DNA from: Candidatus Pacearchaeota archaeon
Lineage (GTDB): Archaea > Nanobdellota > Nanobdellia > Pacearchaeales > GW2011-AR1
Direction: 5' to 3'
Length of the DNA: 64,000 nt
Assembly: GCA_041660485.1 (NCBI GenBank)
Contig: JBAZWF010000001.1
Location: 279,076-343,075 of the forward strand
In this document: positions 9,140 through 52,858 of the stretch, piece by piece
Layout: each line of letters starts with the position of its first letter
How positions within the stretch are numbered: position 1 is the first letter of the stretch
Program-made: the position numbers and the translations under genes
Notes under the pieces: model-generated
What the model was told of the DNA's origin: nothing
Databases searched by the model: none
Seen by the model: only the letters and a program-made list of their open reading frames with translations

Positions 9140-12100
9140 TTAATAAATCTTCGAACCTTTATTAACCCACAACTTTCCGCCTTTAGAAATATTAATTGTT
9201 CTTCCTGCGCCAGTAAATGTTAAGTTTCCTCCAGCAGTAATATTTAACAAGCCAACATCTTGAATTAGCAAATTGCCAGTTACATTAACAAGTGTTCCAA
9301 TAAGACTACAAGTCCGATTAATTATCCAATTGCCAGAACTATATACACAAGGATCTCCTGGACCTAAATCAAAATTAAGCACAAGATTATTAGTTAAATT
9401 AAATGTAGTGATATTACTATTATATCCTGCCTTAGTAACATTTATAGAATAATTTGTATAAAAGTATTGTCCAGTTCTATTCATTAAATATTCCTCTAAA
9501 GTTTTTTGGACAATATTTCCTCCTACCCCTGTTAGTTCACTAAATTTATAATTCCCCCATATATCAAATACAGTTACATTTGCACCTGACAATAAAGCCC
9601 CACTTGAATTTGTATTAACATCCAAATACCATCTAACTTTTATTGTTGCATTTTGTGCTGTCGCACTATAATTAATTCTTAATCCACTTCCTGTTCCATT
9701 AACTACATTTGTGAAATTAACCTGAACTCCATTCTCTGTTGAGGACATTAATACATCAAACTTATTTACACTCCCATTTAATATCATATCTTGAAATGAT
9801 GTATTTCCAGTAAATGGAATACCTATAGCATAACCATTTGGTCCGACAGCACTTACAACTCCTCCAATAACCGTTACATTTGTCGCTCTTGTTGTTCTCA
9901 TTGCACCTTGGGGCGATGAAGGAGTTGCATATTGAACAATTGTATTATTTATTAATAAAGTATTTGAAGAACGAGAAGCAATAATAAATGCATTTCCCGT
10001 GCTTCCTGAATAAATAGTATTGTTAATCATTGTTCCATTTAAACTACCCCAAGAAAATGTTGGGTTAGCCCCAGTAGAATTAACAATATTATTTGCTATA
10101 TAATACCAAGGATTATCTCCATTCATATAAAATAAACCAAATGAACCGCCATAAACTTGTGTAAATCTATTATTAGTTATATTATTTCCCCAATTTGAAT
10201 TAGCATAATTATTGTAAGTTCCAAACATTGGTGCATATGTTGTTCTACCAGTACAATTATTAATAATACCCCAATTTGCCCCATATCCCATATAAATATA
10301 ATTATCTCCTTTTGGAGATGTAAAATTAACACTATCAATTATTGTTGTATTTGAACCATGAATATCTATTCCATCATTACCCATATTACTATTTTTAATA
10401 GTAACATTATTGCTTCCTGCAATTATAATTTGTCCGTATGTTGTTACATTTAATCCTTCTCTCATTACATTATCTTGATCATAAAGATAATAAACTGGAT
10501 AGCCTTCTGCCAAATTAGTTGTATCAATAGAATTATTTAAATGAGTATCATTTGCATAATAACTTCCAGTTATTAAAGAAGGAAATAATAAATAACTCTT
10601 CCCTTGAGTTGTTGAATTAACATTATTTCTTGTTAAGGTATTATATCTTGATGCTTCCAAAGATATACCAGAACTTCCCAAAGTTCCTTCAACCCAAGGT
10701 ATCATATTATTATCTATAATATTTTCATGAGAATTATAAATTCTAATTCCTGTTACCATTGCATTGATTGTATTTCCAGTTATATTATTGTGATTACCAT
10801 TATTCAAATAAATATCTCTTGTATCTCCACCAGGAAAAGCTCGTCTTACAAATGTTACATTAGTTATCGTATTATTAACACTATTTGTTATTTCTATCCC
10901 TGCAATATAAGAACTTCCTGCTGTTCTTGCTCCTCTTTCAATTGTTAAATTATAAATATAAGTATTATTAAAACCAGATATATTAATACCAATAGCATGA
11001 GGTTGATTAGTAGTAGATAAAGAACCATTTCTTGAATAATTAAGCCAATAACCCATACCATTAATAGTAATATTATTTGCTATAACATTAAGGCAAGTCA
11101 TATTAGCCCAGATATTTTGATTTAATTGATAATATCCATTTGCTATATTAAGCGAGCTACTGCAATTAGTTATATTAGTTACAGTTCTCGGAGGATTTGA
11201 ATAAGTAATAATCAGCTGTGGCACCATTGCTGAATTAGCACTATTAAAAGTAATATAATTTCCAACACCAGTAGTTGCAGCAGTCCCATTTGGCTCAAAA
11301 GAATGTTTAAGTGCAATTGAAAAAATAGTATCTCCTAAACCACTAATATCTTGTGTTAAATTTCCTGGAGCTCCTAAACCTAAAGAAATATTATAATAAG
11401 TATTATAGTCTGCTTCACCAGATAAACTATTTTCTCTTGAATATGTTGCAGAATAATTCCACATATCATAATCAGTTCCAACATTTGGACAATTTCGAGT
11501 ATAAGCACTTTGATTAGTCATATAAATTTCAAAACCTACTTGTTGATTAGCTACCGGAGAAATAGTATTATTCACCTGAACATTCTTGCTTAGCCTTAAA
11601 ACAACAGAAGAAATATTTGCACCTGAAGGAATAGAACTAACATTAAAATCAAGAAAAGCTCTGGCAATTGCCCAATAATCTACAATGAAATTATCTCCAA
11701 GATAACCTTCAGTAACAATTGCAGTATTGCTACTATTTGTACACTTAGCTCCAACCATTGTTGAAGTTGCTCCTCCTGAAGCCACACTATAACTTGCATT
11801 AATTACAACAACTGTTTTTCCAGTTGAAACAGAATAACTTACTAACATCTGAGGACGATTATTAGTTGATTCATTTGTTGAAATATTAATATATCCTGCA
11901 GTAGTTGCAGGAGCCAATCCAATTCCAAAAATTGTATCTCCTCTTTTAATTTTACTATATAAATTATTTCCTGAAACAGCATAAAAAGTTGCATTATGCC
12001 AGCCAATAGCATCATTAAATGTATTTACTTCTGTTAAATACCTTGAACTATAATAAAAGGGATTTAATCCAGAAAAACTATTTGTTCCACTTAAAATATC

Positions 12101-13420
12101 TAATAACTTTGTATTACATCCAATATTTTTATAAGAATTTGTATCATTCATGGCATAAACATATAATTCAGAAGGAGATGCTCCAATACTCGTAGTATTT
12201 AACATAAGCTTAACTTCATCAATAGAAACTAAATCAGTTGCAGATATTGCAGATATATTAAATTCAATAAACCCCCTATAATATTCATAAACATCTCCGG
12301 CATATTCATCTGAACCACATTGCCCTAAATACTCAGTATCTACTTTTATTTGTTGAGTATTATTATAACAATAAGGTCCATAAGAAGAAGTACAAGCTCC
12401 ATCTGAACCCGTATACTGATAATAATATAAATAACCATCAAGATTCATTTCTCCTGCAGTATCTCCAATAACAATTGTATCATCAATTATAATTTGCCCT
12501 TCTGTTTCCTGCAACCAGCTCATTGGTACAAGAGCATCAATTATAATTTCATCATTAGAATTATAAGTTATTTCTCTATTAAAATTAATTTTTGTTTTTG
12601 AATCCCATGCTTCTGCAACCGGAATATAAAATAATAATTTTCCATCTTTCCAAAACTCAATTTTATCTCCTGTCTCTGCACTTTCACCAACATTTAATCT
12701 CTTGCCATTAACCTTTATTTCTAAATCATTTGAAATCTTTGCTTTTTGTCTAAAAACAAAATATTCCTTATCAAAATCCAGAAAATTTTTATTATTTAAT
12801 ATTAACTTTTCTTTAACAATATCTTTTTCAGAAGTATAACTTAAATCAATGTCATTTCTAAAAATCTTTTTGTATACAAATTCATTTCCTTTAGCTATTC
12901 CAGAACTTTCTTTATCTTCAGAAATTACTTCAAGATTATCTCCTAACCTATAGCCAATAGAAATTGGCATAAAATAAATATTTGAATCTTTATATTCATA
13001 GTTTACTGGGAATATTGTCTCACTAATTTTATCTTTAAAATACAAATCATAAAGCCCCTCATTAGAAGCATATTCCTGAGCATTAACTTTTTTTATTGTA
13101 AAATTAAATGGTTTCCATTCACCGCTATCAGAAAGATAATTTATTTGATTATTATTAATTAAAGCTTTTCTCTTATCTTCACCAAAACAATAAATATTAA
13201 AATTATATCCTCTTTCGCAAATAGTATAATTCGAAGTTAATAATTGAGTCGTTATATCAAAATTAACTAATTCACTAAATTTATTAAAATTAAAGTTATT
13301 CTTCTCAACAAATTTATTTAAAGGAGTTACATAAAAAATAAATATAAAAGCAATAATTCCAATCACAATTATTAATGCTTTATATTTCTTAAAATTTGTT
13401 TTTATGCCTTCTTTTTTCAT
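9140..13420 (-). CDS. giant secreted/surface protein with parallel beta-helix-like repeats, heavily N-glycosylation-sequon rich
   Basis: 1426 aa; N-terminal signal anchor; dozens of N-x-S/T sequons; repeated NITGNTI / NNTI / IIDNN motifs typical of right-handed beta-helix (pectate-lyase-like) repeats. Confidence 0.6.
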   Translation of the reverse strand: MKKEGIKTNFKKYKALIIVIGIIAFIFIFYVTPLNKFVEKNNFNFNKFSELVNFDITTQLLTSNYTICERGYNFNIYCFGEDKRKALINNNQINYLSDSGEWKPFNFTIKKVNAQEYASNEGLYDLYFKDKISETIFPVNYEYKDSNIYFMPISIGYRLGDNLEVISEDKESSGIAKGNEFVYKKIFRNDIDLSYTSEKDIVKEKLILNNKNFLDFDKEYFVFRQKAKISNDLEIKVNGKRLNVGESAETGDKIEFWKDGKLLFYIPVAEAWDSKTKINFNREITYNSNDEIIIDALVPMSWLQETEGQIIIDDTIVIGDTAGEMNLDGYLYYYQYTGSDGACTSSYGPYCYNNTQQIKVDTEYLGQCGSDEYAGDVYEYYRGFIEFNISAISATDLVSIDEVKLMLNTTSIGASPSELYVYAMNDTNSYKNIGCNTKLLDILSGTNSFSGLNPFYYSSRYLTEVNTFNDAIGWHNATFYAVSGNNLYSKIKRGDTIFGIGLAPATTAGYINISTNESTNNRPQMLVSYSVSTGKTVVVINASYSVASGGATSTMVGAKCTNSSNTAIVTEGYLGDNFIVDYWAIARAFLDFNVSSIPSGANISSVVLRLSKNVQVNNTISPVANQQVGFEIYMTNQSAYTRNCPNVGTDYDMWNYSATYSRENSLSGEADYNTYYNISLGLGAPGNLTQDISGLGDTIFSIALKHSFEPNGTAATTGVGNYITFNSANSAMVPQLIITYSNPPRTVTNITNCSSSLNIANGYYQLNQNIWANMTCLNVIANNITINGMGYWLNYSRNGSLSTTNQPHAIGINISGFNNTYIYNLTIERGARTAGSSYIAGIEITNSVNNTITNVTFVRRAFPGGDTRDIYLNNGNHNNITGNTINAMVTGIRIYNSHENIIDNNMIPWVEGTLGSSGISLEASRYNTLTRNNVNSTTQGKSYLLFPSLITGSYYANDTHLNNSIDTTNLAEGYPVYYLYDQDNVMREGLNVTTYGQIIIAGSNNVTIKNSNMGNDGIDIHGSNTTIIDSVNFTSPKGDNYIYMGYGANWGIINNCTGRTTYAPMFGTYNNYANSNWGNNITNNRFTQVYGGSFGLFYMNGDNPWYYIANNIVNSTGANPTFSWGSLNGTMINNTIYSGSTGNAFIIASRSSNTLLINNTIVQYATPSSPQGAMRTTRATNVTVIGGVVSAVGPNGYAIGIPFTGNTSFQDMILNGSVNKFDVLMSSTENGVQVNFTNVVNGTGSGLRINYSATAQNATIKVRWYLDVNTNSSGALLSGANVTVFDIWGNYKFSELTGVGGNIVQKTLEEYLMNRTGQYFYTNYSINVTKAGYNSNITTFNLTNNLVLNFDLGPGDPCVYSSGNWIINRTCSLIGTLVNVTGNLLIQDVGLLNITAGGNLTFTGAGRTINISKGGKLWVNKGSKIY

Positions 13421-13457
13421 CTTTTTTCACCAAATAACATTTAATTAAAATAATAAA

Positions 13458-16457
13458 TTACGACACCTGAATTATAAGGCGAGAATTAGTGCCGTCCCAA
13501 TATATTTTTCCATCTCCCATGCTAATATTATTTCCCGCTCCGCTAACATTAATATTTCCAGCAACTTCTAGTTTTGCCCCATTAGGAGTCGCAGTTCCTA
13601 TCCCCACGTTTCCCCCAGTATTAACATATAATGTACTATTCAAAGAAACATTTCCACGAACATCTAAATAAGATGCAGGAGTTGTTATTCCTATTCCTAC
13701 TTTTCCTCCAGAAGTTATTCTCATTCTTTCAGCAGTATTTGCTACAAATGCAAGTTCATCAGCAGTAGGATATTCAATACCAATATAAGTATTACCATCA
13801 GTTTGTTTTATAATTCCTCCTCGAACTTGCAAATTTCCATTTATATCTAAGGTAGTTGCAGGATTTGCAATCCCTATACCTACCATTCCCCCACTTACAT
13901 CAACTTTAAATGTTGAAACATTAATTGTTAAATTATTACTTCCAAAATTAATAGGTTGATTTGCATTTGTCCCTGACAAATTCAAATATAAATTTCCTGC
14001 ACCAAGAGTTTGATTATACATCCATGCGCTTATATCTGTTCCATTTTGAATATAAATTGTATTTGAAACATTTATATTTCCTCTAACATCTAATAATTGA
14101 TAAGGTGTTGTTGTGCCTATTCCTACTTTTCCTAATTGATCAATTATCATACGCTGTTTGCTTCCAGCAGCATAAGAATCTGTTGTTCCAAAATACATTT
14201 TTGACCCAAATGTAGCAGAAGATTCTACATATATACCTGCTACCCCAGAATTAACTTGAGAACCAGCATTATTTCCACCAAAAGTAATTGATGAAGTATT
14301 AAAATTAGTCCCAACAGGATTTAAATGAATTGTTCCTTTACCAGTGCCTGAAGTAAGTGTTTCTGCTCCACTTTCAATTTGTAATTTACTTCCAGGAGTT
14401 GTTGTCCCTATACCAACTCTTCCACCATTTGCATCAACCTTAAATGTAGAAACATTAACAGTCAAATTATAATTTCCAAAATCAATTGGTTGATTTGCAT
14501 TTGTTCCAGACAAATTTAAATATAAATTTCCTGCACCTAAAGTTTGATTATACATCCATGCACTTATATCTGTTCCATTTTGAATATAAATTGTATTTGA
14601 AACATTTATATTTCCTCTAACATCTAATAATTGATAAGGTGTTGCTGTCCCTATTCCTACTTTTCCTGATCTACTTATACGCATAAGCTCTGCATTAGTA
14701 TAAGCATTGTTAGATGTTCCAATTTTAAATGTTATATCTCCCCCTCCAACACTATTATATGAAGTCATACCGATACTTGCCTTATAAAAATTAGTTAGAC
14801 TTGAATCATTATAAACTGCTAATTCATATCCATATATTCCTTGAGCACTTGTTCCTGCTGCAGGGTCTCCTTGAATTAACATTCCTGGATAAGTTAAATC
14901 TCCATCAATAATAATATAATCTCTGCCAGAATAAATCGCTCCAGACATAGAATTATACATTGGCCTAGTTGCAATATGTAATGGTGCTAAAGGTGTTGTT
15001 GTCCCTATTCCAACTCTTCCACCATTTGCATCAACTTTAAATGTAGAAACATTAACAGTAAGATTATTACTTCCAAAATTAATAGGTTGATTTGCATTTG
15101 TCCCTGACAAATTCAAATATAAATTTCCTGCACCAAGAGTTTGATTATAAGCCCATGTAACATAAGTTGCATTATATGTAGACATATAACTTAAGTTCGC
15201 AGCTGATAACCAAGTAACATTAACAGAAGCAAAATCATAAGTTTCATTATATTTAGAAATTCCAGTTAAAGCAGAACCATCGCCAACATAAGAACTTGCA
15301 TTCATAATTCCTGCAAAATATCCATTTTTCCATCTCAATGTAGCAGTTCCAATATCAAACTGATTATCAAATCCATCAGTAGGAATTAAACTTGCATTAA
15401 CATTTATATTATTAACAGCTAAAGAAGTTATATTATAAACATAAAGAGATTTTGCAAAAATATTTCCTCCAATAATTGAAACTCCTCCAGACTGCCAGCC
15501 ACTATTAAAATTTGTATTTCCAGAAATATTTAAACCACTTTCATCTGCATAAATTGTCGCACTTCCAACACGCAAATAACTTGTTAAATTCAATCCTAAC
15601 ATCTGTCCTTCTGAATCTAATCCATATTTTGCAGCATAAGTTTCATTATAAGTCGATAAATAACTTAAATTTGCAGCAGATAACCAAGTAACATTAACAG
15701 ATGCAAAATCATAACTTTCATTATAAATTCCTCCTGAAAAAGTTTGATTATATGCCCAAGTAGCATAAGTCGAATTATAAGTTGAATAAATTCCACTAGC
15801 ATTTAATAAATTCTGAATATTTCCAGTTGTATTAACTGATAAAATCATGCTTGTTTCGTTATAAACTCCTGCGCGCGAATCAATTGTAATATTTAATTGA
15901 GTATCATTAAAAGATAGCATACTTCCATTAAAAGAAAGATAATTTGAAGAAACACTATTAACAACCCAATTAAATAATCCTTTAAACCATCCTCCAGCAC
16001 TCATAGAAATATTCTGCCCAGGACTCATAGTTACTGAATCATTAGAAAGCATAATATTTGCATAACCATTGATATTTGAAAGAGAAATATTTCCAGTTGA
16101 ACTTTGAAAAATCTGCCTATCATTTCCATTAAAACTAAATTTCTCTCCATTAACATACATCTCAAAGTAATAAATTCCTCCATATTGTAAACTTAAATCT
16201 TGTGTCCCATTTCCAAGCATTACATCATATTTTCCAGCTGAAATAGAGTTAATAAAATCCCCTGAAGAATTATAAATCAAATTTCCTCCTGAACCAGCAT
16301 CATAAATATAAACTGTCAGATTTCCAGAAGCTAAGTTTACTCCACTTTGTTTAATATTTCCCTGCAAAGCCATTAAATCATCTGTTGCATAAACACCAGT
16401 CGCTATAAGAAAACTACAAATAATCACAACTCCAACTATTAATCTGCTAATTCTCAT
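13458..16457 (-). CDS. large secreted surface protein with tail-fibre-like GxVGIGTTTP repeats
   Basis: 999 aa; signal peptide MRISRLIVGVVIICSFLIATGVYA; three copies of NQTLGAGNLYLNLSGTNANQPINFG.NNLTVNVSTFKVDANGGRVGIGTTTP and repeated GKVGIGTATPYQLLDVRGNINVS motifs; sequon rich. Confidence 0.6.
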   Translation of the reverse strand: MRISRLIVGVVIICSFLIATGVYATDDLMALQGNIKQSGVNLASGNLTVYIYDAGSGGNLIYNSSGDFINSISAGKYDVMLGNGTQDLSLQYGGIYYFEMYVNGEKFSFNGNDRQIFQSSTGNISLSNINGYANIMLSNDSVTMSPGQNISMSAGGWFKGLFNWVVNSVSSNYLSFNGSMLSFNDTQLNITIDSRAGVYNETSMILSVNTTGNIQNLLNASGIYSTYNSTYATWAYNQTFSGGIYNESYDFASVNVTWLSAANLSYLSTYNETYAAKYGLDSEGQMLGLNLTSYLRVGSATIYADESGLNISGNTNFNSGWQSGGVSIIGGNIFAKSLYVYNITSLAVNNINVNASLIPTDGFDNQFDIGTATLRWKNGYFAGIMNASSYVGDGSALTGISKYNETYDFASVNVTWLSAANLSYMSTYNATYVTWAYNQTLGAGNLYLNLSGTNANQPINFGSNNLTVNVSTFKVDANGGRVGIGTTTPLAPLHIATRPMYNSMSGAIYSGRDYIIIDGDLTYPGMLIQGDPAAGTSAQGIYGYELAVYNDSSLTNFYKASIGMTSYNSVGGGDITFKIGTSNNAYTNAELMRISRSGKVGIGTATPYQLLDVRGNINVSNTIYIQNGTDISAWMYNQTLGAGNLYLNLSGTNANQPIDFGNYNLTVNVSTFKVDANGGRVGIGTTTPGSKLQIESGAETLTSGTGKGTIHLNPVGTNFNTSSITFGGNNAGSQVNSGVAGIYVESSATFGSKMYFGTTDSYAAGSKQRMIIDQLGKVGIGTTTPYQLLDVRGNINVSNTIYIQNGTDISAWMYNQTLGAGNLYLNLSGTNANQPINFGSNNLTINVSTFKVDVSGGMVGIGIANPATTLDINGNLQVRGGIIKQTDGNTYIGIEYPTADELAFVANTAERMRITSGGKVGIGITTPASYLDVRGNVSLNSTLYVNTGGNVGIGTATPNGAKLEVAGNINVSGAGNNISMGDGKIYWDGTNSRLIIQVS
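13868..15730 (-). repeat. intragenic long direct repeats (three ~240-bp copies at about 13868-14110, 14408-14645 and 14998-15150; a second ~60-bp pair at about 15195-15255 and 15665-15725)
   Basis: Near-identical DNA stretches ttccaaaattaataggttgatttgcatttgtccctgacaaattcaaatataaatttcctgcacc... recur with 530-590 bp period. Confidence 0.8.
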
Positions 16458-23442: not shown

Positions 23443-23520
23443 AAAAATTAATATTAAACCACATATCAATCCAGCCCAGATAAGTATATAAATAATTAAG
23501 ATAATGATAATAAAAGAAAA

Positions 23521-23760
23521 ATGACAGATCCAAATAAATTATTCAGATTATGCGAAAATTATTACTCTTCAGAATGGGATAAAAGTGGAGACAAACACGT
23601 TTTGCATTGTCAAGCAACCTGCCTTTATGGAAATCAAGTAAGAATAACAAATGAAAAAGGTACATCTACAATATGTATAAAAGATGGACTTGTTTCAAAG
23701 GTTGAAGACCCTAATTTCAATGAAAATGCTGCAAAAGTATTAGCAAAAGCTAAATTCTAG
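23521..23760 (+). CDS. hypothetical small Cys-containing protein
   Basis: 79-aa ORF, 5 Cys; no motif. Confidence 0.35.
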   Translation: MTDPNKLFRLCENYYSSEWDKSGDKHVLHCQATCLYGNQVRITNEKGTSTICIKDGLVSKVEDPNFNENAAKVLAKAKF

Positions 23761-23797
23761 AAAGCTAGATTTATATAATCTTAAATTCTATTTTTAT

Positions 23798-24394
23798 ATG
23801 CGAGAATTCATATTTTTTTCAAATCAAGCGCGAACAAGTGGCAACTTTGATGTTCATCATCTTATGGATGCAGGAAGAATGGATATAGCCTGTCATGTTC
23901 TTATTCATGCTTTCTTTTTATCACATAAATTAAGAGAAGATACAAAACTTCATCTAATATTTAATGGACAACCAGATCCTCCAAAACATTTTTTAATTTT
24001 TCCTAAAGGTAATAAAACAAGTGGCAGTATAACTATAAGTAAAAAAGATGTTGCAAATTTAATTAGAAAAATGCTTTTCAAATATAAACCTGGCCAAAAA
24101 ACAGTTGTTGAACCCGGATATGAAATTGAAAAAAAATCTTTATTTAAAGTAATTGACGAATTAATTAATGAAGGCAAAACAATCTATGTATTAGATGACA
24201 AAGGAGAAGACATAAGAAAATTAAAAATAAAAGATAATCCTGTGTTTGTCTTAGGTGATAGCAGCGGCTTTGCAAGCAAAGAACTTAAAAAGTTAAAAAC
24301 AAAAGCAACCCCAGTTTCAGTTGGAAGTAAAACATATTTTGCATCTCAAGTTATAACCATAGTTAATAATGAGTTAGACAGACGAGAAATTTAA
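23798..24394 (+). CDS. trmY: tRNA (pseudouridine54-N1)-methyltransferase (SPOUT, TrmY family)
   Basis: MREFIFFSNQARTSGNFDVHHLMDAGRMDIACHVLIHAFFLSHKLREDTKLHLIFNGQPDPP matches the conserved TrmY/DUF358 N-terminal block. Confidence 0.7.
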   Translation: MREFIFFSNQARTSGNFDVHHLMDAGRMDIACHVLIHAFFLSHKLREDTKLHLIFNGQPDPPKHFLIFPKGNKTSGSITISKKDVANLIRKMLFKYKPGQKTVVEPGYEIEKKSLFKVIDELINEGKTIYVLDDKGEDIRKLKIKDNPVFVLGDSSGFASKELKKLKTKATPVSVGSKTYFASQVITIVNNELDRREI

Positions 24395-25056
24395 TGTTTC
24401 TTTAAATGTTTTTTCATATATTTTCTCACAAAAATATAAATTATCATAATAATTATAATTAAAAATAAAACTAATAAACTTAACCACTGAATTATTTTTC
24501 CTTCAAATAATGAAAAATAACTTTTACCAAAAAACTCTTTTTTTAATCTAGGTAAAATGAACAAAGTCTTCAAAGATTCATCAAGTGGAAAGCTTTCAGC
24601 TTTGCCAATTGCAAGAGAATACTTGCCCTGATTATCAGAATTATAAACCTTTATTAAATAACTTCCAGCAGAAACATTTTCATCAAATTCAGACCCTTGC
24701 CAGTACTTATCTCCGCCAAATTCTTCATAAAACTCAACCCATTTAATTTCAGAACCATTAAAAATTTCAATCAATTTATTTTCCTTGTAAATTTCAAAAT
24801 TAAAATCTTTTATTTCTTGTTCATATGGTGTAACCATACCTACATATAAATTAAAATTCCCCTCACTATTAACTAAATAATAATCTGGCTTTCCATTTAA
24901 AATTCCATAAAATGCCTGACTTATTTCAGGATTTTTCACAATAACTGGATTATTAGCACTATTATCAACACCAAAAACAATTCTCGGTTGATGTGCAGAA
25001 ACAAATGCTAATAAAAATATAAACAATAAACCAAAAATTAAAACACCTTTTTTCAT
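24391..25056 (-). CDS. secreted protein with C-terminal membrane anchor (hypothetical)
   Basis: Signal peptide MKKGVLIFGLLFIFLLAFVSA (same IFLLAFVSA core as ORF 1172..2164), C-terminal TM helix plus basic tail. Confidence 0.5.
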   Translation of the reverse strand: MKKGVLIFGLLFIFLLAFVSAHQPRIVFGVDNSANNPVIVKNPEISQAFYGILNGKPDYYLVNSEGNFNLYVGMVTPYEQEIKDFNFEIYKENKLIEIFNGSEIKWVEFYEEFGGDKYWQGSEFDENVSAGSYLIKVYNSDNQGKYSLAIGKAESFPLDESLKTLFILPRLKKEFFGKSYFSLFEGKIIQWLSLLVLFLIIIIMIIYIFVRKYMKKHLKKH

Positions 25057-25103
25057 ATGTAAATAATAAAGACCAAGATTATAAATATTGCTAAGAAATC
25101 TAA

Positions 25104-25364
25104 TTACAACTTTTTAACTTCACTAACTAATTTATCAGCTTCTTTTTGAATTTGTTCAATAGCATCTTCAATAGCTTTTCTTGGACTTTTTCCCTTTGTC
25201 TCAATTCTTAAAACAACTGGTTTATTTGGATGTTCTCTTTTCCAAGCTGCGAATATAACAGATGAATCTTTATTCAGATATTCTCTTAAAACCTCAGCTA
25301 TTGTTAAAGAATCTATAGATATTTCAATTTCATTCTTTTCATCTTTAATAATTTTTATGTCCAT
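25104..25364 (-). CDS. rpoL: DNA-directed RNA polymerase subunit L (Rpb11 homologue)
   Basis: 86 aa; pattern IKIIKDEKNEIEI.I....T.....R..L......V.FA....EHP resembles RpoL. Confidence 0.7.
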   Translation of the reverse strand: MDIKIIKDEKNEIEISIDSLTIAEVLREYLNKDSSVIFAAWKREHPNKPVVLRIETKGKSPRKAIEDAIEQIQKEADKLVSEVKKL

Positions 25365-25387
25365 ATATAAAGGTTAAAAAATGAGCC

Positions 25388-25501
25388 TTATAAATGTTAC
25401 GTTTCACTTTTCGTAACATTTATACTTGGGACGATAGTCACACTGTATAAATCTTTTGATGGGGCTTCTCAAAAGTTTATACTTGGAACGATAGTCCTAT
25501 C
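25388..25501. repeat. hairpin repeat family locus 1: B unit (25388-25424), linker, A unit (25444-25481), linker
   Basis: B = ttataaatgttacg-tttcactttt-cgtaacatttata (11-bp stem); A = tataaatcttttga-tggggcttc-tcaaaagtttata (13-bp imperfect stem); both recur at 27.94-28.27 kb. Confidence 0.85.
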
Positions 25502-26403
25502 TATTTTACTAATCCCTCAAGAGGTATTGAGACTTTTGAGTTAAGTGAAGGTAATTGGGGCACATATTCTGATTTAGGAATTATACCAAATTCTTTTCTT
25601 AACATACCTTCAGCTCTTTTATCAGTTATTTGAAAATTATTTTTGCTAGTTATATTAAATTTACCTCCATAAGTTTCAATGACAATATCTCTAATTGCTT
25701 TTAAGCCCATTCCCTGACTAGACATGTAAAAACTTCCATTTTCAATTTCTTTTGGTTCAAAACCTTTTTCAAAAAATCTTTTGATAAAATCCTGACTAAT
25801 AGGTTCATTAACAAGATTTTCAATTTCAAAATTAAATTGTTGAGATGTAAAATAGCTCATTGTTTTGATAACTGAGTTTTCTTTTGAATTTTTTATTGAA
25901 TTTGATATTAAATTTGAAAATATAGTATTAAATGCAAAAGGATTTGTATAAACTAATTTTTCTGCAACATCTTGGCTATAATCAAAGGTTAAACCAAGTC
26001 CTTTTTTTAATATAGAATGTGTCGAGCTATTAATAATTGAAGAAATTTTATCACTAACATTAATTTCTTTTTGATTTTTCGCAATATCTTTAGGTCTTAA
26101 GCCTTTCATCATAATAAGTGCAATTCTTTCTTCAAGTATATGATCAATATTATATTCTGCTCTCTCAATATAATCTCTTATCTTAATCTCTGGACCAGCA
26201 ACATCAAAATTATGAAGTTCTCTCAGTTTAGCAAGTTCCATTTCAACAAGCTGAAGATAACCCGAAGCATTTGCAAGAGGCCCTTTTAGTTCATGCGCTG
26301 CAAATTGCTGCATAACATCGTAATTTGCATTTACCCCTCTAAGTTCTTCATTTTCCATTCTAAGTCTTTCAATTTCCTGTTTCAATTGTTCATTTTGTTC
26401 CAT
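25501..26403 (-). CDS. soluble coiled-coil sensor histidine kinase-like protein (HisKA + HATPase_c), orphan
   Basis: Coiled-coil N-terminus (LKQEIERLRMENEELRG), H-box AHELKGPL, N-box SNLISNSIKNS, G-box GMGLKAIRDIV; no TM segment and no adjacent response regulator. Confidence 0.55.
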   Translation of the reverse strand: MEQNEQLKQEIERLRMENEELRGVNANYDVMQQFAAHELKGPLANASGYLQLVEMELAKLRELHNFDVAGPEIKIRDYIERAEYNIDHILEERIALIMMKGLRPKDIAKNQKEINVSDKISSIINSSTHSILKKGLGLTFDYSQDVAEKLVYTNPFAFNTIFSNLISNSIKNSKENSVIKTMSYFTSQQFNFEIENLVNEPISQDFIKRFFEKGFEPKEIENGSFYMSSQGMGLKAIRDIVIETYGGKFNITSKNNFQITDKRAEGMLRKEFGIIPKSEYVPQLPSLNSKVSIPLEGLVK

Positions 26404-27378: not shown

Positions 27379-27915
27379 CTATTTACTTTTAAGATAATCT
27401 TCATACGCTTTATTAAATTCATTAATCATTTGTTCACTTAATGTAAATTCAACATTAGTATATTTTTCTTTATCATAAGATATAGTTGTTCTCCAGTTTG
27501 TTAAAGGGCAATTTTTAATAGTCATTTTATTTCCATATATAAGATATTCTCCTTGTAAAAGTTTGTTGTTTTTTCTCATATCAATATAAGTCTTAGTCCA
27601 TTCTTCCACAGATTCTATAGGACATAAAATATCTACATTATCATTATTTCTTGTTTTTTCTTTAATTTCAACTGTCCAGTTTGGTTTTGGAAAGTCATAC
27701 ATACTAAGAGTCTTTGATTCAGAATCCCAAAAATAAGCTTTTTGATTTTTCATCATAAAACTATGATTATCTTCAGCTCTTTCTCGCATTAAAACATTTA
27801 TTGAGGGTTTTAATGCAGGAACATATGAAGGAAGAAACTCATTATTGGAGTGAACAAGTCCCAAGCTAGATAAAGCAATTATTGAAGCAAGCCCAGTTTG
27901 TTTAATATAATTCAT
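27379..27915 (-). CDS. secreted hypothetical protein
   Basis: Signal peptide MNYIKQTGLASIIALSSLGLVHS; 178 aa; no motif. Confidence 0.45.
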   Translation of the reverse strand: MNYIKQTGLASIIALSSLGLVHSNNEFLPSYVPALKPSINVLMRERAEDNHSFMMKNQKAYFWDSESKTLSMYDFPKPNWTVEIKEKTRNNDNVDILCPIESVEEWTKTYIDMRKNNKLLQGEYLIYGNKMTIKNCPLTNWRTTISYDKEKYTNVEFTLSEQMINEFNKAYEDYLKSK

Positions 27916-27938
27916 CTGTTGATAGAAAAGGGAGATTT

Positions 27939-28268
27939 TATAAATCTTTTGATGGGGCTTCTCAAAAGTTTATACTTGAAAAATGTTAATTTTTCACTGT
28001 ATAAATGTTACGTTTCACTTTTCGTAACATTTATAGCCAAGACAATAGTCGCAGGATATAAATCTTTTGATGGGGCTTCTCAAAAGTTTATACTTGAAAA
28101 ATGTTAATTTTTCATTGTATAAATGTTTTCATTACCTTTTTTAAAACATTTATGCTTGGGACGATAGTCACATTGTATAAATGTTACGTTTCACTTTTCG
28201 TAACATTTATAGCCAAGACAATAGTCGCAGGATATAAATCTTTTGATGGGGCTTCTCAAAAGTTTATG
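27939..28268. repeat. hairpin repeat family locus 2: tandem ~118-bp-period array A1-D-B1-C-A2-D-B'-C'-B2-C-A3
   Basis: A units at 27939-27975, 28057-28092 and 28233-28268. B units at 28000-28035 and 28176-28211, with a variant B' at 28118-28153. D hairpin gaaaaatgttaatttttc appears twice. C linker gccaagacaatagtcgcagga appears twice, alternating with cttgggacgatagtcac. Confidence 0.85.
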
Positions 28269-28269
28269 C

Positions 28270-28761
28270 TTAGCTATTTGCATTATATGTTTCAAGAATT
28301 CTATTAATTATATTTGTAGATGAATAGCCCTCTTCAAGTTCATAATTCTTAAATTTTCCCCCCCATTCAGATAATACTTTCTGCTCTTCAGCAATTCTTT
28401 CAGCAACAAAACTCCCTCCTTTAATATGGATATTTGGTTTTATTATTTTTAATAATTCTAATGGAGTATCTTCATTAAAAATTGTTATATAATCAACACA
28501 TTCAAGAGCAGATAACATCAAAGCTCTTTCTTTTTGAGGGATTATCGGGCGATTTTCCCCCTTAAATCTTTTTATTGAATCATCACTATTTAATAAAACA
28601 ATTAAACAATTTGCTTCATTTGCTGCCCTCTCTAAAAGATTAACATGAGCATAATGAAGAATATCAAAACTGCCATTTGTTGTTGCAATTGTTTTCTTAT
28701 TTTCTCTAATATTTTTAGCAATACTAAAAATCTCTTTATAACTTCTTATTTTATAATCCAT
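28270..28761 (-). CDS. cytidylyltransferase-fold nucleotidyltransferase (RfaE domain II / RibL-like)
   Basis: ATTNGSFDILHYAHVNLLERA (HxGH-type motif), KGENRPIIPQKERALMLSALECVDYITIF, HIKGG. Confidence 0.55.
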   Translation of the reverse strand: MDYKIRSYKEIFSIAKNIRENKKTIATTNGSFDILHYAHVNLLERAANEANCLIVLLNSDDSIKRFKGENRPIIPQKERALMLSALECVDYITIFNEDTPLELLKIIKPNIHIKGGSFVAERIAEEQKVLSEWGGKFKNYELEEGYSSTNIINRILETYNANS

Positions 28762-32686: not shown

Positions 32687-32760
32687 TACCTACAATATAA
32701 CAAATTGCTTTTAAACATTGCCCTTTTGATTATTGCTTAGCTCTGACATTATATCAAAAG

Positions 32761-32797
32761 ATTTATAAACTATAGCCACTATAGTGGCTATAGGAAA
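32761..32797 (+). promoter_or_regulatory. TATA box (tttataaa) followed by perfect 24-bp palindrome ctatagccactatagtggctatag (32770-32793), 4 nt before the antitoxin ATG
   Basis: Exact reverse-complement symmetry verified by eye; position fits an autoregulatory operator of the RHH antitoxin on a leaderless transcript. Confidence 0.7.
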
Positions 32798-33010
32798 ATG
32801 GAAACAACAACAATTCAACTTAGCAGAGAAACAAAAGACAAAATAGCTTCATTTGGATTAAAAGGAGAAAGTTACGATGAAATTCTTAAAAGGATTTATG
32901 CATTAGCTGTTAAAGAACAATTAAAAGAATTCTTACTTTCATCAGAAAATACTATTTCAATTGAAGATGCTATTAAAGAGCTGAATAAAAAATGGCCAAG
33001 GTCGAAATAG
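32798..33010 (+). CDS. ribbon-helix-helix (CopG/RHH-like) antitoxin
   Basis: TTIQLSRETKDKI N-terminal beta-strand motif; 70 aa; overlaps the toxin by 19 nt. Confidence 0.55.
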   Translation: METTTIQLSRETKDKIASFGLKGESYDEILKRIYALAVKEQLKEFLLSSENTISIEDAIKELNKKWPRSK

Positions 33011-33333
33011 TTCGTTCCTTGTTCGAAGAAATTGAAAAGAAATTCAAAGAAGAATCATATGAAATTATTGAGTTAATGAAAAGTTTAGAAGAAAATCCCC
33101 ATAAAGGAAAACCATTAGGAAACATTGGAGGGGTTTTAATTAAAGAAATAAGGTATAAAAATTTCAGATTTTACTTTATCACAGATGGCCATAAATTAAA
33201 ATTTTTAAATGAAGAAAGTTTAGCTAATTTACTAATAATTTTTATCAAAATGTCTGATAAAAAAAGTCAGCAGAAAACAATTGATGAAATCAGAAAAATA
33301 CTTATTACTTTAGGTCCAAAGGGTTTTGAATAG
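32992..33333 (+). CDS. RelE/ParE-family toxin
   Basis: EENPHKGKPLGNIGGVLIKEIRYKNFRFYFI matches the RelE/ParE core (g.pL.g.l.g..elR.g.yR..y). Confidence 0.6.
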   Translation: MAKVEIVRSLFEEIEKKFKEESYEIIELMKSLEENPHKGKPLGNIGGVLIKEIRYKNFRFYFITDGHKLKFLNEESLANLLIIFIKMSDKKSQQKTIDEIRKILITLGPKGFE

Positions 33334-51347: not shown

Positions 51348-51570
51348 AAGTTCAAAAAGAAAAGTTAGTTTTTAAATATAATTATTATTAAAAAAGAATT
51401 TAATAAATACACTATATTAGTTTATGCTTCGCAAAACCTTCCTAATTTAAAGTTAGAACTACTAAGTATTACCAGTTTAAAGGATAATAATTTAGTAATA
51501 ATATGTGATACACAGATTTCCAAACTAATATTATTTCTCGCGTAGCGAGCACGCTTATCACTAAAAATTT

Positions 51571-52101: not shown

Positions 52102-52300
52102 TTTTTTTATTAAACGAATGTCTTAACTATTCCATATAACAACAAAACTAAAGCAATTATACCTAAAGTCCATAAAATCCCTCTCAGGATTTTTTCTTTA
52201 TCACTTTTTTTCATAATATATCTAATATTCTAGATTTTATAAATCTTACAGCGTATATCTCAACAAAAAAATCGTAACATTTATAAACTAAAGTTAATAT

Positions 52301-52858
52301 ATGTTAACTATGGTAAATATATATGAACTAAAGTTAACAAATCTCCAGCAGAGAATATTAAGACTGCTTTTTGTAAAAACCGGAGTTTCATTAAATGCAT
52401 TGAGAATAGCAAAAAATCTGAAGGTTTCACAGCCTGCAGTTTCAAAAGCCCTGCCATTATTATTAAAAGAAGATTTGATAAAAGCAGAAAAAGACAAAAA
52501 TTCCGGAAGATTATCTATTGAAGCAAACAGAGAAAATCATAAAGTAATGCAGTTAAAAAAAATAGATAATTTAAAGCTAATTTATGAATCAGGATTTGCT
52601 GATTTTATTGAAAAAGAGTTTGCAGGTGCAACTATAATTTTATTTGGCAGTTATTCAAGAGGTGAAGACACTATCAATTCAGATATTGATATTGCAGTTA
52701 TTGGTAGAAAAGATAAACTAATTAATTTAGAGAAATTTGAAGCTATGCTAGAAAGAAAAATAAATATTAATTTTTATACTTCATTTAAAGAAATTCATAA
52801 AAACCTAAAAGAAAATCTCTTTAATGGTATTATTTTATATGGGGGAGTAGAATTATGA
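52301..52858 (+). CDS. nucleotidyltransferase (minimal MNT) with N-terminal wHTH
   Basis: LFGSYSRGEDTINSDIDIAV matches the GS..RG....SDxD pol-beta-NTase motif; N-terminal HTH-like helix. Confidence 0.6.
   Translation: MLTMVNIYELKLTNLQQRILRLLFVKTGVSLNALRIAKNLKVSQPAVSKALPLLLKEDLIKAEKDKNSGRLSIEANRENHKVMQLKKIDNLKLIYESGFADFIEKEFAGATIILFGSYSRGEDTINSDIDIAVIGRKDKLINLEKFEAMLERKININFYTSFKEIHKNLKENLFNGIILYGGVEL

Follow-up and report, generated by a model that had tools for sequence, protein, structure and literature searches.

A mosaic array of palindromic core-promoter modules, probably amplified locally, in a Pacearchaeota genome

The window that we analysed is a 64-kb stretch of a Candidatus Pacearchaeota genome, and at positions 27939-28268 it carries an intergenic array of short palindromes arranged as a mosaic in the order A-D-B-C-A-D-B'-C'-B-C-A, where A, B and B' are hairpins and C, C' and D are linkers (Table 1). 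The flanking genes both lie on the minus strand. The array starts 1 nt past the stop codon (28270) of a cytidylyltransferase-like gene and ends 23 nt short of the ATG (27915) of a gene for a 178-aa protein, which heads a block with cbf5 and a histidine-kinase (HK) gene. The hairpins measure 36-37 nt and are wholly intergenic.

Table 1. Palindromic modules, linkers and the adjoining rpoL gene at the two loci
Feature	Position	Strand	Remarks
rpoL gene	25104-25364	-	downstream of cluster-2 hairpin B
Hairpin B, cluster 2	25389..25424	-	arm CGTAACATTTATA, TTTATA at 25394-25389
Linker C', cluster 2, CTTGGGACGATAGTCACACTG	25425..25445	.	
Hairpin A, cluster 2	25446..25481	-	36/36 identity to A1 and A2
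Linker C'', cluster 2, CTTGGAACGATAGTCCTAT	25482..25500	.	adjoins histidine-kinase gene stop codon (25501)
Hairpin A1, gene-proximal	27939..27974	-	36 nt; minus-strand arm CAAAAGATTTATA, TTTATA at 27944-27939
Linker D, CTTGAAAAATGTTAATTTTTCACTG	27975..27999	.	25 nt; own mini-hairpin, -4.0 kcal/mol; T5 tract on both strands
Hairpin B1	28000..28035	-	36 nt; 13-bp stem, 10-nt loop; -11.8 kcal/mol; sense-arm BRE+TATA score 10.1
Linker C, GCCAAGACAATAGTCGCAGGA	28036..28056	.	21 nt; contains core GACRATAGTC
Hairpin A2	28057..28092	-	36 nt; sense-arm BRE+TATA score 11.1
Linker D, copy 2 (…CATTG)	28093..28117	.	25 nt
Hairpin B'	28118..28154	-	37 nt; arm AAAACATTTAT
Linker C', CTTGGGACGATAGTCACATTG	28155..28175	.	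21 nt
Hairpin B2	28176..28211	-	36 nt
Linker C, copy 2	28212..28232	.	21 nt
Hairpin A3	28233..28268	-	ends TTTATG (final G, not A); 1 nt from cytidylyltransferase-like stop codon 28270-28272

Pattern matching reproduced the module order and unit sequences that a first-pass annotation of this DNA had given, and the number of matches expected per unit pattern in dinucleotide shuffles of the window was 0. Folding corrected the stem of unit B, described there as 11 bp, to a perfect stem of 13 bp; unit A forms 13 pairs with one bulged base. Each unit starts with TATAAAT and finishes with ATTTATA, and this TATA part is all that A and B have in common. The stems are AT-rich and weak, with folding energies of -4 to -12 kcal/mol. 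Every copy is in direct orientation, so that all A and all B units match one strand, and duplicated blocks of 101 nt and 84 nt share 92-98% identity. The proposed 118-bp period holds for the first two A copies but not beyond them, since the next spacing is 176; the regular spacing of the array is a hairpin-to-hairpin period of 57-61 bp. The array is not CRISPR-like, as had been stated, because it holds three different "repeats" and its "spacers" C and D are themselves repeated. The open reading frames that cross it had been dismissed as artefacts, in line with which both were without a homologue among 5.8 billion proteins.

The first-pass annotation overlooked a second cluster, B-C'-A-C'', which occupies positions 25389-25500 between the histidine-kinase stop codon and the rpoL start. 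Since it lies 2.5 kb from the array, the two clusters form direct repeats that flank the 178-aa/cbf5/HK block. The earlier count of three A and two B units is therefore correct for the array itself, whereas both clusters together hold four A units and three B units plus B', which makes eight hairpins at two loci and none elsewhere in the 64 kb. Between the clusters the hairpins are 100% identical and the linkers differ. The linker core GACRATAGTC, which forms a small dyad (GAC-RATA-GTC), is confined to the two clusters.

Assembly support came from three Logan contigs of run SRR18595301, which bear on the outer junctions of the two clusters only and which end in unit A or B at each outer junction: L017 at the A3 side of the array, L018 at the cluster-2 hairpin B, and L001 at the boundary of C'' with the histidine-kinase gene. 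Because these contigs end inside the units, they confirm the outer junctions and demonstrate that the units are repeated in the reads. A repeat-mediated inversion of the rearranged rpoL segment was considered and rejected, because a small ORF but no repeat was present on its other side (23443-23797). No homology links the 221-aa gene that follows rpoL to the rpoL neighbours in a related genome, L006.

The leaderless promoters of this genome follow a very regular layout, with the TATA box 29 nt upstream of the ATG. The motif TTTAWA is found at -27 to -30 from the ATG in 20 of 62 ORFs, 13 of them at the modal position of -29, and any other position is used by 0-3 ORFs. In each 36-nt hairpin an archaeal BRE+TATA arm, which reads on the minus strand in the sense of the genes, faces its own inverted copy across a 9-10-nt loop. 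Scored with a position weight matrix (PWM) derived from 18 other, independent promoters, all eight gene-sense arms reach BRE+TATA values of 9.8-11.1 and so exceed the window's 99.85th percentile, compared with just 0.2 for the antisense arms of A.

The TTTATA of the A1 arm starts at -29 of the 178-aa gene ATG, the modal position in the genome, and the arm has a PWM score of 12.6, equal to the 99.985th percentile of all window positions. Unit A thus occupies the expected site of the native promoter of this gene. In cluster 2, the TTTATA of the B arm starts at -30 of rpoL. We infer that the leaderless 178-aa/cbf5/HK genes have the minus-strand arm of A1 as their working promoter, and the minus-strand arm of the cluster-2 B unit probably plays the same role for rpoL. 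The TATA-like unit ends already remarked upon in the first-pass annotation proved to be the key to the element, and of the three functions suggested there a regulatory region comes nearest, since by sequence the hairpin arms are genuine BRE/TATA core promoters. Such signals gain interest from the fact that DPANN transcription signals are known almost solely from sequence.

Comparison with relatives linked unit B to rpoL. The sequence upstream of rpoL reads AAAACATTTATAAG in L006, L009 and L010 and CGTAACATTTATAAGG in the window, and the arm of B', AAAACATTTAT, is identical to the rpoL promoter of those three relatives. On the strength of this identity, B' can be regarded as an ancestral-like version of B; compared with B it has two pairs exchanged in a compensatory manner (T-A for A-T, and T-A for C-G). 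Each locus has a single occurrence of the 12-mer AACATTTATAAG, invariably at rpoL, in the window as in L006, L009 and L010. By this comparison unit B corresponds to the native rpoL promoter, which in other Pacearchaeota carries a single-copy hairpin of the same geometry. To call the modules an "undescribed structured repeat family" was accordingly an overstatement, B being this genome's form of that single-copy palindrome. The relationship of unit A to the 178-aa gene is of another kind. The homologue of this gene in L006 (E 1e-9) has AGAAAGATTTATAAATTCT at -29, as against CAAAAGATTTATAAAATCT here, and since the A arm motif AAAGATTTATAAA matches a promoter consensus that is widespread in these genomes, the link is mainly positional.

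The rpoL palindrome is conserved as a structure in relatives whose Cbf5 is 61-65% identical to that of the window (L009/L010 and L020). Their rpoL promoters contain a 36-nt palindrome in the same register, with a 10-nt loop and its end on the last TTTATA base. In one ungapped register, 13/13 pairs form in the B unit of the window, 11/13 in L020 and 10/13 in L009. Across this alignment, which covers three lineages only, 87% of cells are paired and four pairs have changed on both sides, a level of pairing and compensation reached by 3 of 500 shuffles; slid controls were 26-52% paired, with 0 compensatory changes. The comparison relies on the ungapped three-sequence alignment and a register table, a five-hairpin MAFFT alignment being out of structural register. 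Stems of at least 8 bp overlap 9 of 80 promoters, and four of these nine belong to rpoL. The rpoL promoters of L006, L019, L021 and L022 are without a comparable stem, and the stem in L008 falls within coding sequence. A palindrome that co-varies across lineages in the promoter of a housekeeping gene such as rpoL hints at a structural promoter or boundary element undescribed for archaea.

Searches for further copies gave no sign of the modules beyond the two loci. The exact 21-mer core of unit A had 0 matches in 185,579 GTDB species-representative genomes and 0 in IMG/VR; four matches turned up in JGI metagenomes, every one of them within an unrelated coding sequence and attributable to chance. 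In the same genomes a degenerate pattern for the hairpin-linker junction returned five single matches in unrelated bacteria, again by chance, and 0 archaeal ones; it had 0 viral matches, an IUPAC pattern for A or B had 0 viral matches, and a BLAST search of the whole array against plasmids and phages found nothing. To describe the modules as local therefore refers to the 64 kb and to the scanned collections, all negative, in which this genome may or may not be represented.

RNA families and mobile-element traits were sought as well. The 64-kb window had no Rfam match at the gathering score, and at E <= 10 the array's sole match, of 18 bits, was a chance one to the HLE family of Drosophila (gathering score 60). 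A tRNA search returned none, and no site passes a terminator scan. Pfam domains of transposases, integrases, RAYT or HUH/Y1 enzymes were absent from window ORFs of at least 90 aa. As for MITE traits, the array ends have no duplicated flanks, the units adjoin through shared linkers, and the window has no dispersed copies outside the two clusters.

Three further candidates were considered and rejected. A replication origin was set aside on the grounds that GC skew tracks gene strand only, with no orc1/cdc6 neighbour and no ORB-like motif. The cbf5 neighbour had suggested H/ACA guide RNAs, and C/D sRNAs were considered alongside them; neither a pocket nor a K-turn interrupts the perfect stems, and C/D boxes are lacking. 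Small leaderless peptides read from the ATG in TATAAATG of unit B were dismissed because the frames vary by copy (12, 14, 24 and 2 codons).

We consider it most probable that the array arose when two palindromic core-promoter modules were amplified locally, in this lineage (probability about 0.6). On this view it is a lineage-specific oddity of promoter evolution, neither a new RNA family nor a mobile element. According to this explanation, the hairpin nearest the downstream gene in each cluster would do the work, its proximal arm driving the 178-aa/cbf5/HK block in cluster 1 and rpoL in cluster 2. Further copies would have arisen by tandem duplication, unequal recombination or gene conversion, within and between the loci 2.5 kb apart, and these events would have shuffled A and B units together with linkers of three kinds, with no transposition involved. 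The extra promoter-grade sense arms would at most act as redundant tandem promoters or additional boundary hairpins, and may be only recently fixed duplicates. Transcripts from the internal modules would have long leaders without a Shine-Dalgarno motif before the 178-aa ATG, so that a benefit of tandem promoters is not obvious. If correct, this explanation means that such an element can be locally copied and shuffled into a mosaic array inside an otherwise streamlined genome.

Selection may act on the palindrome itself as a structure, whether in the DNA or in RNA that reads through from the co-directional gene upstream; the palindrome would then mark, close before a leaderless start, the border where one transcription unit meets the next. 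Against this stands the fact that template switching in replication can perfect palindromes without selection. In cluster 2, L009 and L020 the arrangement resembles a bacterial intrinsic terminator, in that the upstream gene closes with a hairpin and T4-T6 follows within 7-10 nt, ahead of the next start codon; unlike in such a terminator, the 3' arm of the hairpin is the BRE/TATA of the next gene, and none of the sites passes the terminator scan. Known archaeal termination depends on U-tracts and aCPSF1 and needs no hairpin (PMC8716108, PMC2253867), which weakens the case for the hairpin as a boundary signal on RNA. It is a speculative and rather doubtful extension that the rpoL core promoter of Pacearchaeota is a structure-dependent element, at once boundary signal and promoter of leaderless genes, whose hairpin 3' arm serves as BRE/TATA and which here has begun to proliferate and recombine as a modular repeat, an archaeal counterpart of REP/BIME mosaics born from promoters and without a transposase. 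Were the palindrome functional, it would offer a case, simple and open to testing, in which the end of one archaeal transcription unit is coupled to the promoter of the following one; were it not, the array would still show clearly that ordinary promoters can give rise to palindromic repeats between genes with no mobile-element enzyme taking part.

Several other explanations have to be weighed against local amplification of promoter modules. The array could be a recent neutral by-product of slippage, template switching or unequal crossing-over that is due for deletion, in which case only the two gene-proximal arms would work, as ordinary promoters. The full identity among A copies (36/36) and among B copies (36/36) does suggest recent events; the array is present in this lineage only, with relatives having single promoters at the same positions, the linkers lack a recognisable function, the mosaic order fits recombination, and both clusters sit at junctions that vary among relatives. 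We nevertheless regard pure neutrality as rather unlikely. The genome is compact, with a median inter-ORF gap of 63 nt, so 350 nt of inert DNA would be unusual; all six sense arms of the array retain promoter-grade BRE/TATA elements, and the rpoL palindrome is conserved with compensatory changes in other lineages. Those same changes weigh on the proposal that the palindromes are operators, on whose half-sites a dimeric regulator would cover BRE/TATA and repress or co-regulate rpoL and the 178-aa/cbf5/HK genes, the array acting as a multi-operator sink. Dyad symmetry centred on promoter elements would suit such a regulator, as would the constant distance of ~23 bp between arm centres in the window, L009 and L020, the second small dyad unique to the linkers, and the presence elsewhere in the window of palindromic operators between TATA and ATG (32769-32792). 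The half-site, however, differs among lineages at four positions on both arms together, which counts against an operator because a protein site needs matching changes in its regulator and a structure does not. Moreover, A and B are alike in the TATA part only and no regulator gene is adjacent, the nearest TrmB-like gene being 10 kb off, so that we hold the operator proposal to be decidedly unlikely.

Mobile extragenic palindromes of the REP/BIME or MITE type, scattered over the genome and mobilised by an enzyme whose gene lies elsewhere, would account for 36-nt imperfect or perfect extragenic palindromes at two separate loci, for short-read contigs that break at the units, and for a mosaic that, as in BIMEs, combines two types of palindrome with several of linker (PMC2817692, PMC3733652). 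Yet just two neighbouring loci are known in 64 kb, and no copies were found in the scanned genomes, viruses, metagenomes, plasmids or phages; the copies are all direct where BIME REPs alternate, they show no GTAG/CGTC tag or target-site duplication, the window encodes no HUH/Y1 or other transposase, and the arms find their orthologues in promoters native to the neighbouring genes. Mobility is therefore very unlikely, and the MITE-like element put forward in the first-pass annotation finds no support either, the units having no terminal inverted repeats or target-site duplications and the window no dispersed copies beyond the two clusters and no transposase among its ORFs of at least 90 aa. Small structured RNA genes, also put forward there, would require the TATA box of one module to drive transcription of the hairpin that follows. 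The sense TATA does lie 21-25 nt upstream of the next hairpin, which equals the TATA-to-start distance of the genome, and the hairpins fold better than shuffled sequence. On the other hand, the units belong to no Rfam family, have no terminators that would delimit them and no C/D box or H/ACA pocket with ACA architecture, and their AT-rich stems are weak; they are situated before the point where the leaderless genes they serve begin, and the single hairpin of the relatives lies wholly upstream of the rpoL start and is not transcribed by that promoter. RNA genes are thus extremely improbable here. The anatomy and the TATA remark of the earlier interpretation stand, and its RNA-gene and MITE readings are unsupported.

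Among known systems, the class I intergenic repeats of halovirus HF2 (58 bp) are experimentally shown promoters (PMC8707807). They resemble the array in being repeated, archaeal intergenic modules of ~58 bp, each HF2 repeat with BRE, TATA and start region at canonical spacing. HF2 repeats are single, non-palindromic and non-tandem, dispersed before separate transcription units and conserved across a virus genus, whereas the modules described here are palindromic putative promoters, stacked in two neighbouring arrays and restricted to one cellular lineage. REPs are G+C-rich, carry a GTAG/CGTC tag, alternate in BIMEs, exceed 100 copies per genome and are associated with a RAYT transposase (PMC2817692, PMC3733652). 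With the gammaproteobacterial REP/BIME elements our modules share a nature as 20-40-nt extragenic palindromes of two types with several linkers, placed intergenically, at the 3' end of a gene that is followed by another in the same direction; they differ in being AT-rich, with TATA-box ends, all direct and known from two loci, with no transposase nearby. The rRNA operons of Halobacterium are preceded by tandemly repeated promoters, several direct copies before one transcription unit, and those promoter units are longer, non-palindromic and have mapped start sites. Compared with them, the genes downstream of our modules are ordinary protein genes and their promoters are predicted ones.

The mosaic array of hairpin units (A, B and B') and linkers (C, C' and D) most likely consists of promoter-derived palindromic modules that were amplified locally, a more ordinary origin than the structured-repeat or small-RNA family put forward in the first-pass annotation. 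It fills the 354 nt that separate the ATG of the 178-aa gene from the stop codon of a cytidylyltransferase-like gene. The mosaic order described there is real and non-random; exact unit copies lie far above chance, with 0 expected in shuffles. In unit B a 10-nt loop closes a perfect 13-bp stem; in unit A the loop is 9 nt and the 13 pairs are accompanied by one bulged base. Stems are AT-rich and weak (-11.8 kcal/mol for B, -7.5 for A, -6.3 for B'). The ~118-bp period proposed earlier describes only one pair of A copies; from hairpin to hairpin the regular spacing is 57-61 bp. The array was absent from the Tandem Repeats Finder output.

Array units, adjoining genes and palindromes at the rpoL promoters of relatives
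Feature	Window position	Strand	Length	Detail
rpoL	25104-25364	minus		Pfam RNA_pol_L_2
178-aa gene	27379-27915	minus		
A1	27939		36 nt	
D (first copy)	27975		25 nt	
B1	28000		36 nt	
C (first copy)	28036		21 nt	
A2	28057		36 nt	
D (second copy)	28093		25 nt	
B'	28118		37 nt	
C'	28155		21 nt	
B2	28176		36 nt	
C (second copy)	28212		21 nt	
A3	28233		36 nt	
Cytidylyltransferase-like gene	28270-28761	minus		
L009/L010 palindrome				TAAATGTTT-N14-AAACATTTA
L020 palindrome				AAGCTTTTG-N10-CAAAAGCTT
L008 palindrome				TTATAAAG-N29-CTTTATAA; weaker; inside coding sequence

A survey of the 70 nt upstream of 62 window ORFs revealed that TTTAWA starts at -29 in 13 of them and at -27 to -30 in 20, with 0-3 ORFs at each other position. 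This peak is the signature of archaeal promoters for leaderless mRNAs, and so regular a layout helps to correct start codons in this genome. On the gene strand, TTTATA lies at -29 in the A1 arm proximal to the 178-aa gene (CAAAAGATTTATA) and at -30 in the B arm proximal to rpoL in a second cluster (CGTAACATTTATA). Using a weight matrix built from 18 other promoters, all gene-sense arms (six in the array, two in the second cluster) obtained BRE+TATA scores of 9.8-11.1, above the 99.85th percentile of window positions. Antisense arms scored 8.0 for B and only 0.2 for A, because the bulge displaces the BRE. Arm positions and matrix scores thus make each hairpin a core promoter joined to an inverted copy of itself, and the array presents six promoter-grade sense elements 57-61 bp apart. 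Linker length (21-25 nt) is close to the TATA-to-start distance of 23-24 nt.

Matches to the arms were also seen at a divergent promoter pair (52214-52310), where the promoter of a 37-aa minus-strand ORF (ATG 52214) has 16 nt (AAGATTTATAAAATCT) in common with the A1 arm, and that of a MarR-nucleotidyltransferase gene has 13 nt (CGTAACATTTATA) in common with the B arm. The TATA position suggests ATG 52310, not 52301, as the true start of the latter gene.

In the second cluster, B and A recur at 25389-25481, each 36/36 identical to array copies. Linker C' joins B to A, and a further linker, C'', follows A and adjoins the histidine-kinase stop codon; the cluster stops 24 nt short of the rpoL ATG. 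The two clusters thus form direct repeats on either side of the 178-aa/cbf5/histidine-kinase block. Outside them, the 64-kb window held no further copy of any unit, of the linker core GACRATAGTC or of the palindrome TATAAAT-N22-ATTTATA. The genome scan for copies was negative, a result that is informative only if the MAG belongs to the GTDB representative set and the window alone was masked, which is plausible. Read set SRR18595301 yielded three Logan contigs whose ends lie inside A or B at each of the four outer junctions, which indicates that the junctions are real and the units repeated in the reads.

Relatives carry single promoters at the same genes. Upstream of rpoL we found AAAACATTTATAAGG in L006, AAAACATTTATAAGT in L009/L010 and CGTAACATTTATAAGG in the window, and B' carries AAAACATTTAT. 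Array copies aside, the 12-mer AACATTTATAAG occurs once each in L006, L009/L010 and the window, and every time at the rpoL promoter, which identifies B as that promoter. In L006, the gene for a homologue of the 178-aa protein (25% identity, E 1e-9) has AGAAAGATTTATAAATTCT at -29 versus CAAAAGATTTATAAAATCT in the window; A was assigned to the 178-aa gene mostly by position, since the motif is a common promoter consensus. Both unit types are present at both loci, duplicated blocks of 84-101 nt share 92-98% identity, and linker and hairpin types are found in free combination. Repeated local duplication with recombination or gene conversion would account for this pattern; insertion of a discrete element would not.

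The rpoL promoters of relatives also contain, upstream, an inverted copy of their own BRE/TATA region. A set of 80 promoters, drawn from the window and six relatives and including five of rpoL, had nine with a promoter-overlapping stem of at least 8 bp, and four of the nine were rpoL promoters (hypergeometric probability ~4e-4, hand calculation). Aligned without gaps in one register, with the last base of TTTATA as anchor, window B forms 13/13 pairs, L020 11/13 and L009 10/13, each with a 10-nt loop. Across this three-sequence alignment 87% of cells are paired and four pairs differ in both partners; an equally good result came from 3 of 500 shuffles, and slid controls reached 26-52% paired with 0 compensatory pairs. 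B and B' differ by two further compensatory pairs. No comparable stem was found in the rpoL promoters of L006, L019, L021 and L022. By sequence comparison the palindrome is older than the array, and its conservation, from three lineages and with four rpoL promoters lacking a comparable stem, is suggestive. The co-varying palindrome within the rpoL promoter is the part that merits follow-up.

What the sequences show is how the arms are composed, placed, oriented and related by orthology, and the pattern of local duplication; beyond these, the proximal arms would be the working promoters of the 178-aa/cbf5/histidine-kinase genes and of rpoL. Because both arms change together between lineages, the dyad would be kept for structure rather than for a protein-read sequence. 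The dyad may instead act at the DNA level, whether as a dimeric regulator's operator or as a cruciform. Since both arms occur together only in transcripts from an upstream co-directional gene, the most economical role is that of an end-of-unit hairpin, which would close the upstream transcription unit directly before the leaderless start; a T4-T6 tract follows the hairpin in the window, L009 and L020. This role is weakened because characterised archaeal terminators are U-tracts working with aCPSF1 that need no hairpin (PMC8716108, PMC2253867), and it is counted against by a hairpin-plus-T scan that no site here passes. The extra copies may be redundant promoters and hairpins, or merely young duplicates.

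The nearest precedent for the promoter-derived modules is halovirus HF2, whose 58-bp intergenic repeats are each an experimentally active BRE/TATA promoter; those repeats differ in being dispersed, single and non-palindromic (PMC8707807). The array resembles bacterial BIMEs in being a mosaic of two palindromes and several linkers, but its units show neither the alternating orientation nor the GTAG/CGTC tag of REPs (PMC2817692, PMC3733652). On two further REP features, a copy number >100 and a RAYT, the 64-kb window offers eight hairpins at two loci and, among ORFs of at least 90 aa, no RAYT. CRISPR, MITE, H/ACA, C/D and every Rfam family were excluded for the array. Neither an RNA family nor the suggested MITE-like element describes it, and mobility is not indicated; window ORFs of at least 90 aa include no transposase, integrase or HUH enzyme. 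A further parallel is offered by the tandem promoters in front of Halobacterium rRNA operons.

The source contig of this Candidatus Pacearchaeota MAG measures 856,651 bp, and its closest Cbf5 relatives share only 61-66% identity. The housekeeping neighbourhood (S19e, L39e, L31e, DNA_alkylation, CTP_transf, cbf5, RNA methyltransferase, rpoL) is syntenic with relatives, and both clusters are located at junctions that vary among them; the DNA_alkylation-cbf5 interval differs in every genome compared. Synteny with L006, L008, L009 and L019-L022 breaks at 23798-26403: in all these relatives rpoL follows the RNA methyltransferase gene and is opposite to cbf5, and in the window it is co-directional with cbf5, with the histidine-kinase gene, not at this position in relatives, inserted after cbf5. 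An FtsZ/ScpB/glycosyltransferase block lies on the other side in the window, at 43-51 kb. In another Pacearchaeota genome, a 600-nt gap upstream of rpoL (L022 8440-8930, GCA_964467035.1, contig CAYXNX010000001.1; L023 2830-3129) holds a G-rich mosaic repeat unrelated to the array, with 49- and 76-nt periods and an internal assembly gap; motif AAATTTTGATTCA occurs in it in either orientation. Repeat expansion may be recurrent upstream of rpoL.

Across window positions 1-64000 no tRNA gene or Rfam gathering-score match was detected. A ~50-nt conserved element (reference TTTARTAAAYAYACTATATTRGTTTRTGCTTCGCAAAACCTTCCTAATTT), which has no Rfam match, occurs at 2169-2218, 51399-51448 and 62017-62066, with 72-90% identity to the reference, in one shared orientation and always 60-120 nt past a minus-strand stop codon; it may represent a small RNA missed by annotation, or else a regulatory or terminator region that these genes have in common. 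At 9140-16457, two minus-strand ORFs of very large size (1426 and 999 aa) lack a Pfam match; inside the 999-aa one, DNA repeats of ~300 nt recur at intervals of 534-597 nt. Positions 53312-56095 encode a 927-aa fused restriction-modification enzyme (MmeI/Eco57I-like, Type IIG/IIL) next to the MarR-nucleotidyltransferase gene and a 147-aa ORF. Finally, a perfect 24-bp palindrome, CTATAGCCACTATAGTGGCTATAG (32769-32792, region 32754-33333), separates a TCAAAAGATTTATA promoter from the start codon (ATG 32798) of the gene for a 70-aa DUF7557 protein, and that gene overlaps a 113-aa ORF; from its sequence, the arrangement resembles an autoregulated pair of toxin-antitoxin type together with its operator.
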